Origin: Ostreococcus lucimarinus
Taxonomy: Eukaryota
Assembly: GCA_000092065.1 (NCBI GenBank)
Contig: CP000601.1
DNA length: 64,000 bases
Strand: one strand, 5' to 3'
The translations under genes and the position numbers were made by a program. The notes under the pieces were generated by a model. It ran no database searches. It saw nothing but the letters and a program-made list of their open reading frames with translations, and had not been told where the DNA came from. This document shows, one piece after another, positions 1,037 through 6,985 of this stretch (the stretch's first letter is position 1; each line of letters opens with the position of its first letter).

Positions 1037-1066
1037 AAAATTGTTTACAGAGATACCGCGACGAGA

Positions 1067-1443
1067 TTGAAGCAATACAAGGAACTCGATGGGCACCTGA
1101 TGAACGCCTCCGTGTGGGACGAGTATTTGACCCCAGAGATGCTCAGTCTGTATAATCCCGAAACAGACCAATTCGAGGAGCCCAAGCACTGGCTAAATGG
1201 GAAGCGTGTAGGAATTGCAATACTGGCGGATGATGTAAAATCGAGTCCGTTGCTGTCTAACAAAGCCTGGCGCAACCTGTGTATCAAATGCCGCCACCTT
1301 GGATCCTTCCCTGACAGTTCTCCACCAATAGGGTGCTCGATTTTCTGCGCGAGGTCAAGGACGCCGACGCGACGCTCCCAGACAAGTTGAAAGCCGAGGT
1401 ACCGACCATGCTTCAGAAAGGCGTGCGCGCGTATCTGGATTAA
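1067..1443 (+). CDS. Hypothetical small protein, possibly two exons (1067/1100..1234 and 1318..1443)
   Basis: Two ORF segments in different frames join in phase 0 across a GT...AG interval at 1235-1317 (GTAAAA ... CTGACAG), giving ...GIAILADD|FSTNRVLDFLREVKDADATLPDKLKAEVPTMLQKGVRAYLD*. No family was recognised. The first ATG is at 1100. Confidence 0.25.
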
Positions 1444-1666
1444 GCTTCACAAGTACCGTGGTGTGGGTAACATCTGGGACATCTTATCGAAATAATTCAT
1501 CGATGTTCGCCAGGAGATCGAGGAACAGGTGCCGTAAATTACGAAGAGCGTTTCGATTTACAATTTATATGATCCTCTAGCTTGAAAAATAGATCTCCGT
1601 CAGTGGCCGTGGGTGTGTTTGCCACAACTTGATTTGATAGTAATTGACATTTTTTTACCGCTCTCA

Positions 1667-3196
1667 TTAGTGCGCGTGTGCGTGTGAGTCTCCGCCACCG
1701 CCACCGCCTGTGCAATGCTTGTGGTTGAGGAGCACGAGACTGATGGCAACAACGCCGACGATGAAGGTGAGAATGCTCGTCGCGCGAAGACGAGGTGAAG
1801 TGGCGCTCACTGATACTCGGGGCATGCACTCTGCGGCGGCGATTTGCAGATAGACTCCAGCACCGAAGGCGAGCAGCAGTCCATGCCAGAAGTCGTTGTT
1901 ATTTCCCGATCCAACACTAATGAGGACGCCAAGAATGACACTCAAGCCGGAAACGAAGTTTAAAGTCAGCGTCGGCAACGGCGCGAGATCGCCCTGGAAG
2001 GGGTCTACGAGCACCAAGTAGTCAGCAAGCTCTTGAGCGATTTCGTGATAGACGGTCGCGGCGGTGATCGACCATCCCATGGTACTGTCGCAGTTCAGAA
2101 AGCCGAAGCCAATGAAAATACCATCCACTAGGTTGTGCATGAAATCTCCAAGAATGATACCACTTCGAACGCGATACTTGTGTGAGTTACAAGTACAAGT
2201 ATCACAGTCATCTTGAGCGCCTTTGACTGCAAGTTCCGCATCGGTTGTCTTCGCTGTATTTCCAAGAGTTGGGAACACGACAGAGATACCAAAGTCGATG
2301 AAGTAGGCCATGAGAAAGCCGAAGATAGAAGCGGAAGCCCACCATGCGGTCTGCTCTGCCTCATCCGAGCCAGCAGGTTTGATTAAATGCGTGGCTTCGT
2401 AGAACATCAGATAAAACGCAGCCGAAAGAAGTGCGCCGGCGGCAAACGAGTTAATTGTGCAACTCACAGTTTCAGGGTACGCTTTCTGCTTCTTAGCGAT
2501 ACTCGGGATGAGAAAGACCACACCAGAAAGTGTGACGATATTGACGATAATTGCCGCCCCAATGGCGTTGGCCCACGGTTTTGATTTCGATTCGCTCACG
2601 GTGGATGCTTCGGGAAGTGAAGCTTTTGGCACCACGTCATCTCCGTGGAGGTCCTTGAGATAGTGCGCGTCGCGCTCGAACTCGGTGGGAACGTGCTCAG
2701 CGAAGATTGAGATCGCGTCGATGCCAGTCGTATTAATCTTAAACGGCGTCGTGTGCCAGGTGTTGTCAAATTCAAGGTTGACACACCCACTATCAGGTGT
2801 CAAAACACTATCTCGTATCTTAGCCGTCGTACAAGCTCCCCCGATTGCGGTATCACCGCTATCCTCGCGGGCTTCGAGCTCGTCGTGTCCGGCGGCGATT
2901 TCGTCGTAGATGACCATTTTCATGGTATCGGCGGCGTACTTATCGGCCACCTTTTGCGCCTGCCACACGTATTCATTCTCTGGCGTCTCAAAGATTCCAG
3001 CCCATTCGAATGCGTGCGCGCCGGACGCGTGCGCGCCGCGCTGCGCGAGCGCGCTCGCGACGATCGCGATGCCACCACCGAGCGCGCTCGCGCAGCGCAT
3101 CGTTCGCCCTCGTCGTCGCTCGACCGTCCTCGCACCGCGTGCGCGTTCGCGCGGCGGCATCGTCGTCTTCGTGTTCTTCGTGTTTTCGTTCGTCAT
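1667..3196 (-). CDS. ZIP-family (Zrt/Irt-like) divalent metal transporter
   Basis: ZIP signature helices HNLVDGIFIGFGF and HEIAQELADYLVL, several hydrophobic TM segments, a Cys/His-rich loop (DDCDTCTCNSHKY) and a His-rich C-terminus (DSHAHAH). Alternative starts are M13 (3160) and M33 (3100, followed by a signal-peptide-like MRCASALGGGIAIVASALA). Confidence 0.85.
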   Translation of the reverse strand: MTNENTKNTKTTMPPRERARGARTVERRRGRTMRCASALGGGIAIVASALAQRGAHASGAHAFEWAGIFETPENEYVWQAQKVADKYAADTMKMVIYDEIAAGHDELEAREDSGDTAIGGACTTAKIRDSVLTPDSGCVNLEFDNTWHTTPFKINTTGIDAISIFAEHVPTEFERDAHYLKDLHGDDVVPKASLPEASTVSESKSKPWANAIGAAIIVNIVTLSGVVFLIPSIAKKQKAYPETVSCTINSFAAGALLSAAFYLMFYEATHLIKPAGSDEAEQTAWWASASIFGFLMAYFIDFGISVVFPTLGNTAKTTDAELAVKGAQDDCDTCTCNSHKYRVRSGIILGDFMHNLVDGIFIGFGFLNCDSTMGWSITAATVYHEIAQELADYLVLVDPFQGDLAPLPTLTLNFVSGLSVILGVLISVGSGNNNDFWHGLLLAFGAGVYLQIAAAECMPRVSVSATSPRLRATSILTFIVGVVAISLVLLNHKHCTGGGGGGDSHAHAH

Positions 3197-3325
3197 CGTT
3201 TCCGTCGTCGTCGTCGTCTTCGCCGGCGTCGGTAAGTGCGGCTGCGCACAAACTAAAGCGGCATACGAACCGAACCGGCGCGATGGAGGGCGGTCGTTTA
3301 TAAGTCACGACTCGCGAACGACAAA

Positions 3326-3482
3326 ATGTCGACATCCGCCGCAGTGTCGACACATCTCGGTGGTACTTGGATATGTCGAAATATGTCGACATGTGCGTCG
3401 AGACGTTTTTCGTATATAGATGCATCACGGGGTTCAATGCGTACACGCGCGTGGGTAAATATGTCGACATGCGTGTCGACAT
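3326..3482. promoter_or_regulatory. Cluster of five exact RTGTCGACAY palindromes (ZDRE-like) in the bidirectional ZIP/COG0523 promoter
   Basis: Exact matches: ATGTCGACAT 3326-3335, GTGTCGACAC 3344-3353, ATGTCGACAT 3383-3392, ATGTCGACAT 3461-3470, GTGTCGACAT 3473-3482. There is also a 9/10 match, ATGTCGAAAT, at 3373-3382. Confidence 0.6.
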
Positions 3483-3546
3483 GTTTACGACGCGCGTCGC
3501 GACGCGATCCGTGATGGGCTTCGCGGGGCGTCGCGTACGACGATCC

Positions 3547-3589
3547 TCGACACGTGCACGACGCGAATCGTCGACACGTGCACGACGCG
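3547..3589. promoter_or_regulatory. Two copies of the 19-mer TCGACACGTGCACGACGCG (GTCGACAC half-site overlapping a CACGTG G-box) just upstream of the COG0523 start
   Basis: Copies at 3547-3565 and 3571-3589, with a 5-nt spacer. CACGTG occurs at 3551-3556 and 3575-3580. Confidence 0.45.
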
Positions 3590-3658
3590 CGCGCATCGCC
3601 GCACTTCGCGACGCCTCTTCGGCTCGTTCGCGCGCGGAGACGTCGATCGCCGTACATC

Positions 3659-5299
3659 ATGTCCACACCCGCCGCAATCGCCAATCATAATCGATTGCCG
3701 GTGACAACGCTGTGCGGGTTCCTCGGCGCTGGGAAGACGACAACTCTGAAACGCGTGCTCGAAGCTAAGCGAGACGCGAACGGAAAGTTTCGGTGTGCCG
3801 TCGTCGTGAACGACGTCGCGGAGTTGAACATCGACAAAAAATTAATCGATGATTCCGCTTTGCTGCAGAGCGACGAGGTGGTTGCCATGCAGAACGGATG
3901 CGTGTGCTGTTCGTTGAGCGGAGACTTTGTAAAACAAATCGGGGACATGGCCAAGAGTGGCAATTTTGACTACATGATCGTAGAGGCATCAGGAGTGTCG
4001 GAACCGGCGGAAATTGCGAAACTCTTCGCAAATTGTGAGGACGATCACGATCATGAAGCTGCGCACGTTGATGAGCATGAACATTTGAGCACACTGGCGC
4101 GGCTGGATACGTGCGTGACGGTCATCGCTGCAGGTGACTTTCTCGACATGATTGATTCTTTCAGGGCGTCAGCTGTGAACAGGCAGTCTTACTCTCAATT
4201 GTTGGCTGAACAGATAGAGTACGCGAATGTCGTCGTATTGAACAAGGTCGACACTGTCGATGACGAACAACTCGCCGAGATTAAAGCGCAGATACAACTT
4301 CTCAATTCACGTGCTGATATTCTTGAAGCTGTGAACGGCGCGATCGACGTTACGCGAATCGTCAATACAAAACTTTACAAAGAGAATGACTTTGCTGGTT
4401 TCATAACATGGGAACAAGAGATAGAAGCAACATCTGTGAAGTCATGCTGCGCCGGCGCTAGGGACAAAGGTGAGTCTCCATGCTGTAAGCGAGCTCGCAT
4501 GAGAGAAACAGCCTTAAGCGAGGTCACGCTTGCACCAAGTTCTTCCCAAACACGTCACGATAGTCGGTTCGGTATTACGTCTTTCATTTACCGAGCCAGA
4601 AGACCTTTTCATCCCAAACGGTTTTTAGGCTCATTTGTCGAGCGCTTCTTCAGCTCCCTCGAGGCCGATGACCGTGATGAAGAAAAAGATGAAGAGACAC
4701 CAAGTGTAGACTGGAGTGCAGTGAAAGATATTCGAGCGCGACAAGAAGCGATGAAACTCAAGCGCCGTAAAAGGGAAGGTGAAATTGGTGTGCTGCTACG
4801 TTCGAAGGGTGTAACGTGGCTCAGTGATGCCCACGACTTGATAATTGTTTTCAGTCAGGCTGGTAATATTTACTCTCTCGAAGGATCAAGCCGATGGACC
4901 GCGCTGAATAAAAATGCTTGGGTCGGCTCACAGGGGATAAAGCAAGAACTTCGTAAAGACTGGGAGGGGCCTTATGGTGATCGCCGACAAGAACTGGTGT
5001 TCATTGGCAAGGATCTTAAATACGATGAAATTCAATCAACGTTGGACTCTTGCCTCTTGACCGACGAAGAATTCGAAATGGGTTCTGATGGCTGGAGAGC
5101 AGTCATGGGTGATGTCTTTCTAGACGAAGACGACGAAGACGAAGACGACGAAGTCGATGACGAAGACGACGAAGAAATCGACGAAGATTTGGTCGACGAC
5201 GAGGAGATCGAAGAGGAGATCAGGCCGCAACCCACTTCAAAGTCGAAGGCAAAACCAAAGGCAAAGTCGGCGCCCTCTCAAAACGACGGCTTAGTCTGA
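3659..5299 (+). CDS. COG0523/CobW-family GTPase, eukaryotic ZNG1-type putative zinc metallochaperone
   Basis: Walker A GFLGAGKTTT, CxCC metal motif GCVCCS, His-rich stretch EDDHDHEAAHVDEHEH, and a CobW_C-like region (RFGITSFIYRARRPFHP ... GDRRQELVFIGKDL ... LDSCLLTDEE) followed by a long acidic tail. The ATG at 3659 was chosen over the upstream alternative-start ORF (3554). Confidence 0.9.
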   Translation: MSTPAAIANHNRLPVTTLCGFLGAGKTTTLKRVLEAKRDANGKFRCAVVVNDVAELNIDKKLIDDSALLQSDEVVAMQNGCVCCSLSGDFVKQIGDMAKSGNFDYMIVEASGVSEPAEIAKLFANCEDDHDHEAAHVDEHEHLSTLARLDTCVTVIAAGDFLDMIDSFRASAVNRQSYSQLLAEQIEYANVVVLNKVDTVDDEQLAEIKAQIQLLNSRADILEAVNGAIDVTRIVNTKLYKENDFAGFITWEQEIEATSVKSCCAGARDKGESPCCKRARMRETALSEVTLAPSSSQTRHDSRFGITSFIYRARRPFHPKRFLGSFVERFFSSLEADDRDEEKDEETPSVDWSAVKDIRARQEAMKLKRRKREGEIGVLLRSKGVTWLSDAHDLIIVFSQAGNIYSLEGSSRWTALNKNAWVGSQGIKQELRKDWEGPYGDRRQELVFIGKDLKYDEIQSTLDSCLLTDEEFEMGSDGWRAVMGDVFLDEDDEDEDDEVDDEDDEEIDEDLVDDEEIEEEIRPQPTSKSKAKPKAKSAPSQNDGLV

Positions 5300-5761
5300 T
5301 GTCTTTCTAGGTGACACTGAAGCGGAACAGGGTGGAGATGTGGACTCGGGCAACTCTTCCGACATGTAAGCTTGTCCTTTATAGTGAGCCCACACCGATG
5401 TGAGCGCAAGTCATTTTTATGCACACAGTGACATCTTCATCGAATACCAGACGTGGTTGCCAGCGGCTGCGCGCGGTCAAGATAGCGCGACGAAGGTCGG
5501 CAATAAGCTCAAGGACTTCTTCAAGAAGGAAAAGGGCCACAGGGTCCCAATGGAAGAGGACCACCTGAGGCAAGGTAGAGACGAGAAGGGCGTCTATTGG
5601 GAAATTCACCGCGACGGGTGCTTCGAGTGGCTGAAGGACAATGGGTACACAGGGGAGACGGAGCTCGCGCCGGCGGTCGTCTGGTGCTCATACTAATTTT
5701 GTAATTCGTACATTTGCAATATGAAGACTCAACGAGACACCAAAAAGACCATGGTTTGGAT

Positions 5762-5952
5762 CCTGACGAAATGACGAATGACGAACTGTTTTCATAAAGG
5801 TCCACACTGTTGCTTGTCATAGATCTAAAATAAAAATAAACATTAAAATATTTTAACATTTCGTCATTTTCATCATTGGTACACACAAAGTGTCACCGAA
5901 CGACGGGTTGACGAATTTGTGGACGACAAAACAAGTTCGTCATTTCGTCAGG
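5762..5952. repeat. Inverted repeat (CCTGACGAAATGACGAA[TGACGAA]CT / AGTTCGTCATTTCGTCAGG) flanking about 145 bp of very AT-rich spacer
   Basis: Left arm 5762-5787, right arm 5934-5952. The arms are 19 nt complementary once a 7-nt duplication in the left arm is allowed. A further TTCGTCATTTT motif lies near 5866. Confidence 0.4.
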
Positions 5953-6130
5953 TCTCGACGGATCACGAACGTCCAGGTGTGAAATCAGGCGGTTCGGTAT
6001 CTACATTCCGGACCTTGCAGCCCACGCAGCGATACGCGTACCTATGGTCTCTCGGATGTGACTGCAAACCGCAGGAGGAGGCACTTTTGGCAACAATATT
6101 TTCTTAGGGATAGATAGGTAACCAGGACAA

Positions 6131-6628
6131 ATGCCGTCGGGATGCGTGTACGAAATGTTTAGCGATAATGCGAAATGTAACAAAACGTACATCGGATCGA
6201 CGACGGGTTCGCTCAGAGCGCGCCTTGCCTCGCATAAATACGCACGACATCCAATCTTCACGTTTGGCGACGCGGACGTGAGAGTTCTCGAAAAGGACAT
6301 TCCAGCTGGAGAGCTCCATCAACGTAAAGGTGCCTACATGAGAGAGAAGCGTGACGGCTTATTCAACTCCCGAGCTGCTGGACGCAGCCAGAAACACGCG
6401 TGCCGCGAGAACGTGGACGAGAGTCCAGCCTACAGCAGAGCTCAATATACGCCGAAGCGGGACGGCGGCGATGGTAACTACAGACAACTCAATTATTACA
6501 AGCAGCACGCAAAAGGAATACTGCGCAAGACGTGCCTCAAGAATGCCCGAGCGCGCGGCACGCTGCCTTCGAAGCGCAGTCTCGACAAGTATCAATTTAC
6601 GGTAGATGAGTTACGCGGCTTGGCTTGA
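6131..6628 (+). CDS. GIY-YIG nuclease-like protein (homing-endonuclease-like)
   Basis: N-terminal GCVYEMF-x9-YIGSTTGSLRARLASHK matches GIY...YIG...R...H spacing. It is followed by VRVLE (candidate catalytic Glu) and an LFNSRAAG segment. The C-terminal half is basic. The ORF is lower in GC than most of the window. Confidence 0.55.
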   Translation: MPSGCVYEMFSDNAKCNKTYIGSTTGSLRARLASHKYARHPIFTFGDADVRVLEKDIPAGELHQRKGAYMREKRDGLFNSRAAGRSQKHACRENVDESPAYSRAQYTPKRDGGDGNYRQLNYYKQHAKGILRKTCLKNARARGTLPSKRSLDKYQFTVDELRGLA

Positions 6629-6844
6629 CCACTTCACTCACACGATTGGTTCTGGAGAAATCTTACATGCGGTACATCAACGTCGATGTGCGGTTTTATC
6701 ATGTTGGGGTGCCCCAACTCAAAAAAAAAGTTTATTTTTATTACTCATAGCGATAAATTTTTTAAAGTACTATCCGTCACCCCGAAACGACGAAAGTCAC
6801 AGTGTTGTCGTGTCGCTTTTCCATCACGGACAATCGGGTATGGG

Positions 6845-6849
6845 AAAAA
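6845..6849 (-). terminator. Candidate RNA polymerase III terminator (T5 on the minus strand), 22 nt downstream of the tRNA
   Basis: AAAAA on the plus strand is TTTTT on the tRNA strand. It is the first T-run after the discriminator base. Confidence 0.5.
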
Positions 6850-6859
6850 GTAAGGTTTG

Positions 6860-6869
6860 ATGTCGACAC
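6860..6869. promoter_or_regulatory. ZDRE-like palindrome ATGTCGACAC in the right direct repeat, 3 nt downstream of the tRNA 3' end
   Basis: Exact RTGTCGACAY match, duplicated from or to 925-934. Confidence 0.35.
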
Positions 6870-6871
6870 AT

Positions 6872-6985
6872 CTCTTCCTGCGGGTTTCGATCCCGCGGCT
6901 TCCAGATCTCTATCGGAGCAGCCGTCATATTCGACGGAGACTTTTTCCTAACAGTCTGACACTCTACCAGCTGAGTTAAGGAAGA
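6872..6985 (-). tRNA. tRNA-Asn (anticodon GUU) with a 41-nt intron at the canonical 37/38 position
   Basis: Manual cloverleaf: acceptor TCTTCCT/AGGAAGA, D arm ACTC-AGCTGGTA-GAGT, anticodon stem TCAGA/TCTGG, loop CTGTTA|intron|A, variable loop AAGCC, T arm GCGGG-ATCGAAA-CCCGC, discriminator G. The mature length is 73 nt. The T loop has A54/A60, unusual for an elongator tRNA. Confidence 0.8.

Follow-up and report, generated by a model that had tools for sequence, protein, structure and literature searches.

A GIY-YIG gene of probable polinton-like virus origin at the edge of a tRNA-Asn-linked island in Ostreococcus lucimarinus

Introduction

The green alga Ostreococcus lucimarinus carries an open reading frame (ORF) whose position raises the question of whether it brought about an insertion or was merely carried with one. 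The ORF lies at 6131-6628 on the plus strand of a 64,000-nucleotide (nt) stretch of contig CP000601.1 (assembly GCA_000092065.1), referred to here as the window. It encodes 165 amino acids (aa) from ATG to TGA, with an N-terminal GIY-YIG domain and a basic helical C-terminal region. It is located within an inserted island bounded by direct repeats at a tRNA-Asn gene. A first-pass annotation correctly placed it just inside the right repeat, although the gap between the stop codon and that repeat is 115 nt and not 116. The same annotation suggested that the ORF could be the agent of the insertion, a relic of it or a virus-derived passenger.

The evidence points with good confidence to a GIY-YIG gene from a polinton-like virus (PLV), probably nuclease-dead, which is a relic or passenger and probably not the insertion agent. 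The form of the repeats, a lysine at the catalytic position and a truncated helicase gene upstream argue together against the ORF as agent. The passenger or relic option is supported by linkage to a PrimPol-helicase gene and by a capsid gene in related contigs.

Family assignment and fold

Membership of the ORF in the GIY-YIG family and the GIY-YIG fold of its N-terminal half are established by the Pfam scores of its relatives, the order of strands and helices in its AlphaFold2 model and the relatives recovered by profile search. The protein begins MPSGCVYEMFSDNAKCNKTYIGSTTGSLRARLASHK. The GIY-YIG domain spans approximately residues 1-85 and a conserved basic helical region approximately residues 115-165. 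With the window protein alone, Pfam PF01541 matches residues 4-37 only (E 0.0093, 16.7 bits) and remains under the gathering cut-off of 22.6, so that the hidden Markov model (HMM) search supports the assignment through the relatives and not through this sequence by itself. Relatives of 49-63% identity that bear the catalytic Glu match profile positions 2-72 with 26-33 bits, above the curated cut-off. The profile is matched by 15 of the 18 sequences in the homologue alignment, the best of them at E 6.5e-07. Among 1.84 billion cluster representatives, a profile search recovered 988 relatives, mostly of 130-220 aa. The AlphaFold2 model (predicted local distance difference test, pLDDT, 70) has the beta-beta-alpha-beta-alpha order expected for the fold. 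The motifs, the modelled fold and the Pfam-passing relatives all uphold the original identification of a GIY-YIG-like ORF.

The C-terminal domain is helical and conserved, and is modelled at pLDDT 83-91. Pfam gave no match to this half at E up to 5, and no NUMOD, zinc finger or helix-turn-helix (HTH) was recognised. The first-pass description of a basic C-terminal half is accurate (isoelectric point, pI, 9.9), but the N-terminal half is equally basic (pI 9.7). In the PDB, sequence searches with the protein and its profile returned chance-level matches only, and a search of PHROGs with the protein returned none.

An identical protein is annotated at two loci of O. lucimarinus CCE9901 (XP_001421138.1 and XP_001422817.1), under the UniProt name ‘GIY-YIG domain-containing protein’. 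There is a third paralogue, XP_001421474.1, for which a contig look-up (P0035) found none. Marine metagenomes contain 32 cluster-level homologues. An iron-limitation-induced ‘GIY-YIG nuclease’ of O. tauri, ostta16g00515 (PMC4855317), was considered as a family member and could not be linked to it.

The catalytic position

The ‘GIY’ and ‘YIG’ motifs are present as V6-Y7-E8 and Y20-I21-G22. Residues in the key columns were counted in 141 diverse family representatives aligned to the family HMM. Y7 is conserved in 135 of these, Y20 in 138, R31 (aligned with R27 of I-TevI) in 136 and H35 (aligned with I-TevI H31) in 135. The conserved Arg noted in the first-pass annotation is confirmed by the R31 column. 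N79 is conserved in 137 representatives and is paired by hhalign with I-TevI N83, not N90 (conserved Asn after helix alpha2).

In GIY-YIG enzymes, a conserved Glu holds the single catalytic metal ion. The corresponding column, position 66, is Glu in 135 of the 141 representatives and Lys in one, the representative of the window's own clade. In the window, codon 66 is AAA (6326-6328, plus strand). The hhalign alignment to I-TevI pairs R31 with R27 and K66 with E75, the segment ELHQRKGAYMRE being the counterpart of LIIERENFWIKE. The I-TevI sequence was checked against PDB entries 1mk0 (E75A mutant) and 1ln0 (R27A mutant), and E75A is the inactivating mutation used for the 1mk0 crystal structure. 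Lys occupies position 66 in every inspected member of the clade, which is defined by at least 85% identity, and the AAA codon is a single transition from GAA. An alternative catalytic Glu had been proposed within ‘VRVLE’. This residue, E54, closes strand beta3, as does ‘SILEE’ in I-TevI, while K66 holds the catalytic column, and the proposal was rejected.

As the metal-binding Glu is replaced by K66, nuclease activity has probably been lost, and judged from its sequence the protein most likely cannot cleave DNA. The ORF is a cautionary case in which motif spacing alone pointed to an active nuclease, yet the metal-binding residue is gone.

The virus-derived unit

The ORF is the last part of a longer virus-derived unit at 5425-6739 (plus strand), which consists of the 3′ end of a helicase gene, an intergenic module and the GIY gene. 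The unit is 94% identical in nucleotide sequence to positions 9304-10605 of L013-L018, six Ostreococcus contigs of chromosome scale. At 5425-5696 (plus strand) lies a 5′-truncated remnant, the last 90 codons and stop, of a gene for a 733-aa PrimPol/DUF5906 protein, a superfamily 3 (SF3) helicase. An apparent 98-aa ORF at 5400-5696 comprises these C-terminal 90 residues, with 96% identity by BLASTP to residues 644-733 of the L013 helicase. Pfam recognises Prim-Pol and DUF5906 in full-length relatives. The helicase is full length in L013-L018, and also in the virus-like contig L002, and in the six chromosomal contigs the GIY gene follows it directly.

The homology between the window and L013-L018 stops at the same nucleotide, after ‘...AAAAAAAGTTTATTTTT’, in both contexts. 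Downstream, the six contigs continue into an unrelated gene and the window reaches the direct repeat 4 nt later. Rfam detected no tRNA near the helicase-GIY copies of L013-L018.

Between helicase and GIY gene is a 191-nt module (5762-5952) with perfect 17-nt inverted repeats at its ends, CCTGACGAAATGACGAA and TTCGTCATTTCGTCAGG, and TGACGAA(A/C)TG motifs around an AT-rich core. The pattern TGACGAANTG has four matches in the window, all of them inside the module, against a chance expectation of 0.79. The module is kept in L013 and L001. Two copies are found in L002 (326-519 and 3813-4006), where the homology reaches the inverted repeats and goes no further. Candidate identities for the module are an origin of replication or set of iterons, a promoter module and an insert resembling a miniature inverted-repeat transposable element. 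L014, L016 and L017 carry a separately duplicated and inverted GIY-only segment of 588 nt (window 6073-6660), for which no matched empty allele was identified.

Directly upstream of the helicase-GIY unit, positions 1-7231 of L013-L018 hold a totally different sequence in each of these otherwise near-identical contigs. The region is a hypervariable hotspot. Its content, all low in GC, includes ankyrin genes, a bZIP gene, a ZIP transporter paralogue (82% identical to that of the window) and extra GIY copies.

Parent elements

On gene-dense contigs of 13-25 kilobases (kb; L002, L019-L024), more distant GIY relatives adjoin Prim-Pol/DUF5906 or D5-type genes. Identity to the window protein is 60% for P0019, about 50% for P0200 and about 26% for P0246. 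A conserved adjacent gene pair, encoding proteins of approximately 323 and 446 aa, is common to L002 (10108-12458), L019, L020 and L022. The structure model of the 446-aa family (pLDDT 86.7, predicted template modelling score 0.88) retrieved double-jelly-roll major capsid proteins in Foldseek, including Vp54 of PBCV-1 (E 1.8e-16) and the capsid proteins of SGIV and Sputnik. As modelled, the 446-aa protein is a double-jelly-roll capsid protein, and its 323-aa partner is probably the penton protein. The presence of both a PrimPol-helicase and this capsid on related contigs identifies the parent elements as polinton-like viruses.

A capsid homologue is present in L002, L019/L020 and L022, and none was found in the window or in L013-L018. 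As the window has no capsid gene, it holds a fragment and not an element. Capsid relatives in IMG/VR (L029-L034) carry the 323/446-aa pair, with no GIY or helicase homologue detected on them. GIY-YIG genes are known to recur in virophages, polintons and related elements, with a helicase-GIY-YIG fusion in Tlr1 (PMC3671162), and Ostreococcus genomes have been reported to contain one or two such capsid genes (PMC10120064).

Copy state and selection

Intact copies from different loci and genomes (the window, L013, L014b and L017b) show a ratio of nonsynonymous to synonymous substitution rates (dN/dS) of 0.25-0.34 in each half of the protein, significantly less than neutral evolution would give (binomial p about 0.003). 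The ORF protein falls within a 90%-identity cluster of 898 sequences, which together with the dN/dS values shows that the ORF did not arise by chance. Intact 165-aa clusters comprise about 1,077 member sequences, and truncated or frameshifted clusters about 82. Conservation bears out the reading of a genuine gene, as homologues exist and intact copies dominate, though decayed copies also exist, for example L001 and P0005-P0013.

Several of these observations weigh against the ORF as a nuclease-dead viral relic. The dN/dS of approximately 0.3 and the majority of intact copies show that selection acts on the K66 protein or did so until recently, and the label ‘inert relic’ may be too strong. The nucleotide identity of the ORF to L013 (94.6%) is not above that of the flanking non-coding DNA (94.8%), which means that the neighbouring non-coding DNA is conserved as well. 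The proposed loss of activity is argued from one residue. Neither the window nor the DNA up to 10 kb from the chromosomal helicase-GIY copies was found to contain a capsid or integrase gene, and the chromosomal unit may be a capsid-less derivative.

In a different explanation, a nuclease-dead GIY-YIG protein was exapted and is retained, by the element or by its host, to bind DNA, for instance at the TGACGAA module, or to take part in antiviral interference. The low dN/dS in both halves, the fixation of K66 across an abundant clade, the basic, conserved and confidently modelled helical C-terminal domain and the conservation of the adjacent non-coding module are all consistent with it. The gene, however, is multi-copy, with many copies frameshifted or truncated. 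It always occurs with viral fragments and not as a single-copy orthologue, and its C-terminal half matches no known DNA-binding family. Exaptation is considered unlikely, and the preferred explanation is still that of a viral passenger or relic.

The island at the tRNA-Asn gene

The island is a 5.7-kb, low-GC segment at 1037-6743, delimited by GC content, Pfam content and empty sites. It contains a ZIP transporter gene (1667-3196, minus strand) and a cobW/COG0523 GTPase gene (3554-5299, plus strand), both assigned by Pfam, and the viral unit, whose fragment at 5425-6739 forms its right edge. The GC content of the island is 51.8% versus 61-63% in the flanks, and its genes have a GC content at third codon positions (GC3) of 0.54-0.62 versus 0.73-0.79 in neighbouring host genes. 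In sister lineages (L025-L027 and L028) the site is empty, with a JmjC gene, one tRNA-Asn and an MJ1567-like gene and nothing between them, which identifies the island as an insertion. The MJ1567-like gene in the flank of the window shares 92% and 66% identity with its orthologues in the sister lineages.

The island is bounded by direct repeats at 809-1036 and 6744-6971 (228/229 nt, three mismatches). The right copy consists of 128 nt downstream of the tRNA followed by tRNA positions 15 to the end, and the left copy contains a tRNA fragment without the 5′ 14 nt. The intact tRNA-Asn(GUU) gene, with a 42-nt intron, is at 6872-6985 on the minus strand (Rfam RF00005, 49 bits, E 2e-08). ARAGORN reported no tRNA in the window or the loci, the gene being missed because it has an intron. 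The intact tRNA stands beside the GIY end and the copy lacking the 5′ 14 nt is at the far end.

The island is similar in layout to the tRNA-targeted genomic islands of bacteria, but it is without an integrase. No integrase or recombinase was found in the island, where Pfam recognised ZIP and cobW domains only and matched none of the small ORFs. As first noted, the GIY ORF is the sole nuclease-like ORF here, with no nuclease domain found by Pfam in the other island ORFs. A tblastx comparison of the non-genic parts of the island with the virus-like contigs found nothing viral.

The geometry bears on the proposal that an active homing-type endonuclease cut the tRNA-Asn locus and so inserted the cassette. 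A GIY-YIG fold with its motifs, and the closeness of the gene to the repeat boundary, would fit such an agent, and the inverted GIY-only duplicates suggest some independent mobility of the gene. Against it, the catalytic Glu is Lys in all clade members, and the helicase-GIY unit ends at the same nucleotide elsewhere, beside a different gene and without a tRNA. Homing does not leave long direct repeats, and the left end of the unit, at 5425, is a visible truncation within the helicase gene. The 229-nt duplication of the 3′ part of the tRNA would instead be the signature of circle integration by recombination. On these grounds the suggestion that the ORF was the agent is not supported, and an active homing endonuclease is very unlikely.

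The least probable origin is a homing endonuclease gene transferred to the alga from a giant virus of the prasinovirus/phycodnavirus type, the kind of source first proposed: free-standing GIY-YIG genes are common in such viruses, but a pattern-based GIY scan of 2.9 million IMG/VR contigs, whose short exact patterns detect fairly close relatives only, confirmed no relative, and all recovered contexts of the gene are either Ostreococcus chromosomes or the 13-25 kb contigs with PrimPol-helicase and capsid genes. Homologues of the virophage GIY-YIG proteins in nucleocytoplasmic large DNA viruses have been listed (PMC3671162).

Some further features of the island were recorded. An extra 86-87 nt, placed where the T-arm meets the acceptor stem, is present in the tRNA-Asn gene of some strains and of the sister lineage (equivalent to window positions 6881 and 946; L025 9534-9620; L006, L008, L010, L012), sometimes in one repeat copy only. 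Either a second, non-canonical intron of the tRNA or a population-polymorphic insertion may account for it. The metagenome contig L012 (1-3941) has the order GIY gene, repeat, ZIP gene, the junction expected of a tandem array or circular island. Misassembly is equally possible, as the assembler k-mer of 127 does not span the repeat. Window positions 3379-3600, which lie upstream of cobW, contain short direct repeats (AAATATGTCGACATG... and ATCGTCGACACGTGCACGACGCG). The Rfam match to BTH_s1 in this interval scores 24 bits versus a gathering score of 74 and is almost certainly due to chance.

Comparison with known systems

One known counterpart of the N-terminal domain is the catalytic domain of I-TevI, the homing endonuclease of the phage T4 td intron (PDB 1ln0/1mk0). 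The ORF differs from it in having Lys at the E75 equivalent and no intron context, and its C-terminal half has no similarity to the zinc finger, helix and HTH of the I-TevI DNA-binding region.

Another likeness is to the GIY-YIG genes of virophages, polintons and polinton-like elements, such as Mavirus MV06, OLV1/OLV24 and the Tlr1 fusion (PMC3671162). These are likewise small GIY-YIG genes of small eukaryotic double-stranded DNA elements, with a double-jelly-roll capsid in the element and a physical link to a primase-SF3 helicase gene. By description, the ORF is set apart from them by the lack of a C2H2 Zn-ribbon fusion, a distinct helical C-terminal domain and the change of E to K. Endogenous PLV and virophage insertions in protists (PMC10120064) are similar in placing viral DNA in an algal nuclear genome. 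The window copy differs in that only 1.3 kb is left, with no gene for a capsid, packaging ATPase or integrase, and in that it lies in an island with cellular-type genes (ZIP and cobW).

The Seg-type GIY-YIG genes of T4-like phages are comparable as small stand-alone genes beside a conserved replication gene, and the independent duplication of the 588-nt GIY-only segment adds to this similarity. The catalytic Glu is absent in the ORF clade, unlike the Seg-type genes, and the likeness is one of gene size, placement and duplication.

Proposed history and implications

The preferred history begins with a marine polinton-like virus lineage in which a small gene, encoding a GIY-YIG domain and a basic helical domain, would travel beside a PrimPol-SF3 helicase gene. 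Its ancestral role may have been replication-associated or homing-type cleavage in the virus. Endogenous fragments of such viruses would have settled in Ostreococcus chromosomes, with the window keeping only the last 1.3 kb of an element: the 3′ 90 codons of the helicase gene, the 191-nt module and the GIY gene. In the O. lucimarinus clade the catalytic Glu would have become Lys through one GAA-to-AAA change, and the protein may persist either as a passenger that lost its mobility only recently or through a DNA-binding role. The island itself may have integrated when the chromosomal tRNA recombined with a circular intermediate carrying the 229-nt tRNA fragment.

A bolder combination of these elements is also rather improbable. 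In this, the K66 clade would be a nuclease-dead GIY-YIG protein that binds DNA sequence-specifically under purifying selection, and a virus-like vehicle would have placed the ZIP and COG0523 cargo into the tRNA-Asn gene. If true, this would be a eukaryotic counterpart to the genomic islands that target tRNA genes in bacteria.

Earlier work had described both GIY-YIG genes in elements of this kind and PLVs endogenous to Ostreococcus, and the general principle is not new. On the passenger or relic reading, an isolated ‘nuclease-like ORF’ becomes a datable viral footprint. Polinton-like viruses with PrimPol-helicase, GIY-YIG and capsid genes would have repeatedly left fragments in Ostreococcus, one of which marks the edge of a recent island. 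In picoalgal genomics, the island, as a presence/absence polymorphism, and the hypervariable flanks that border the other helicase-GIY copies are markers with which virus-host history can be traced.
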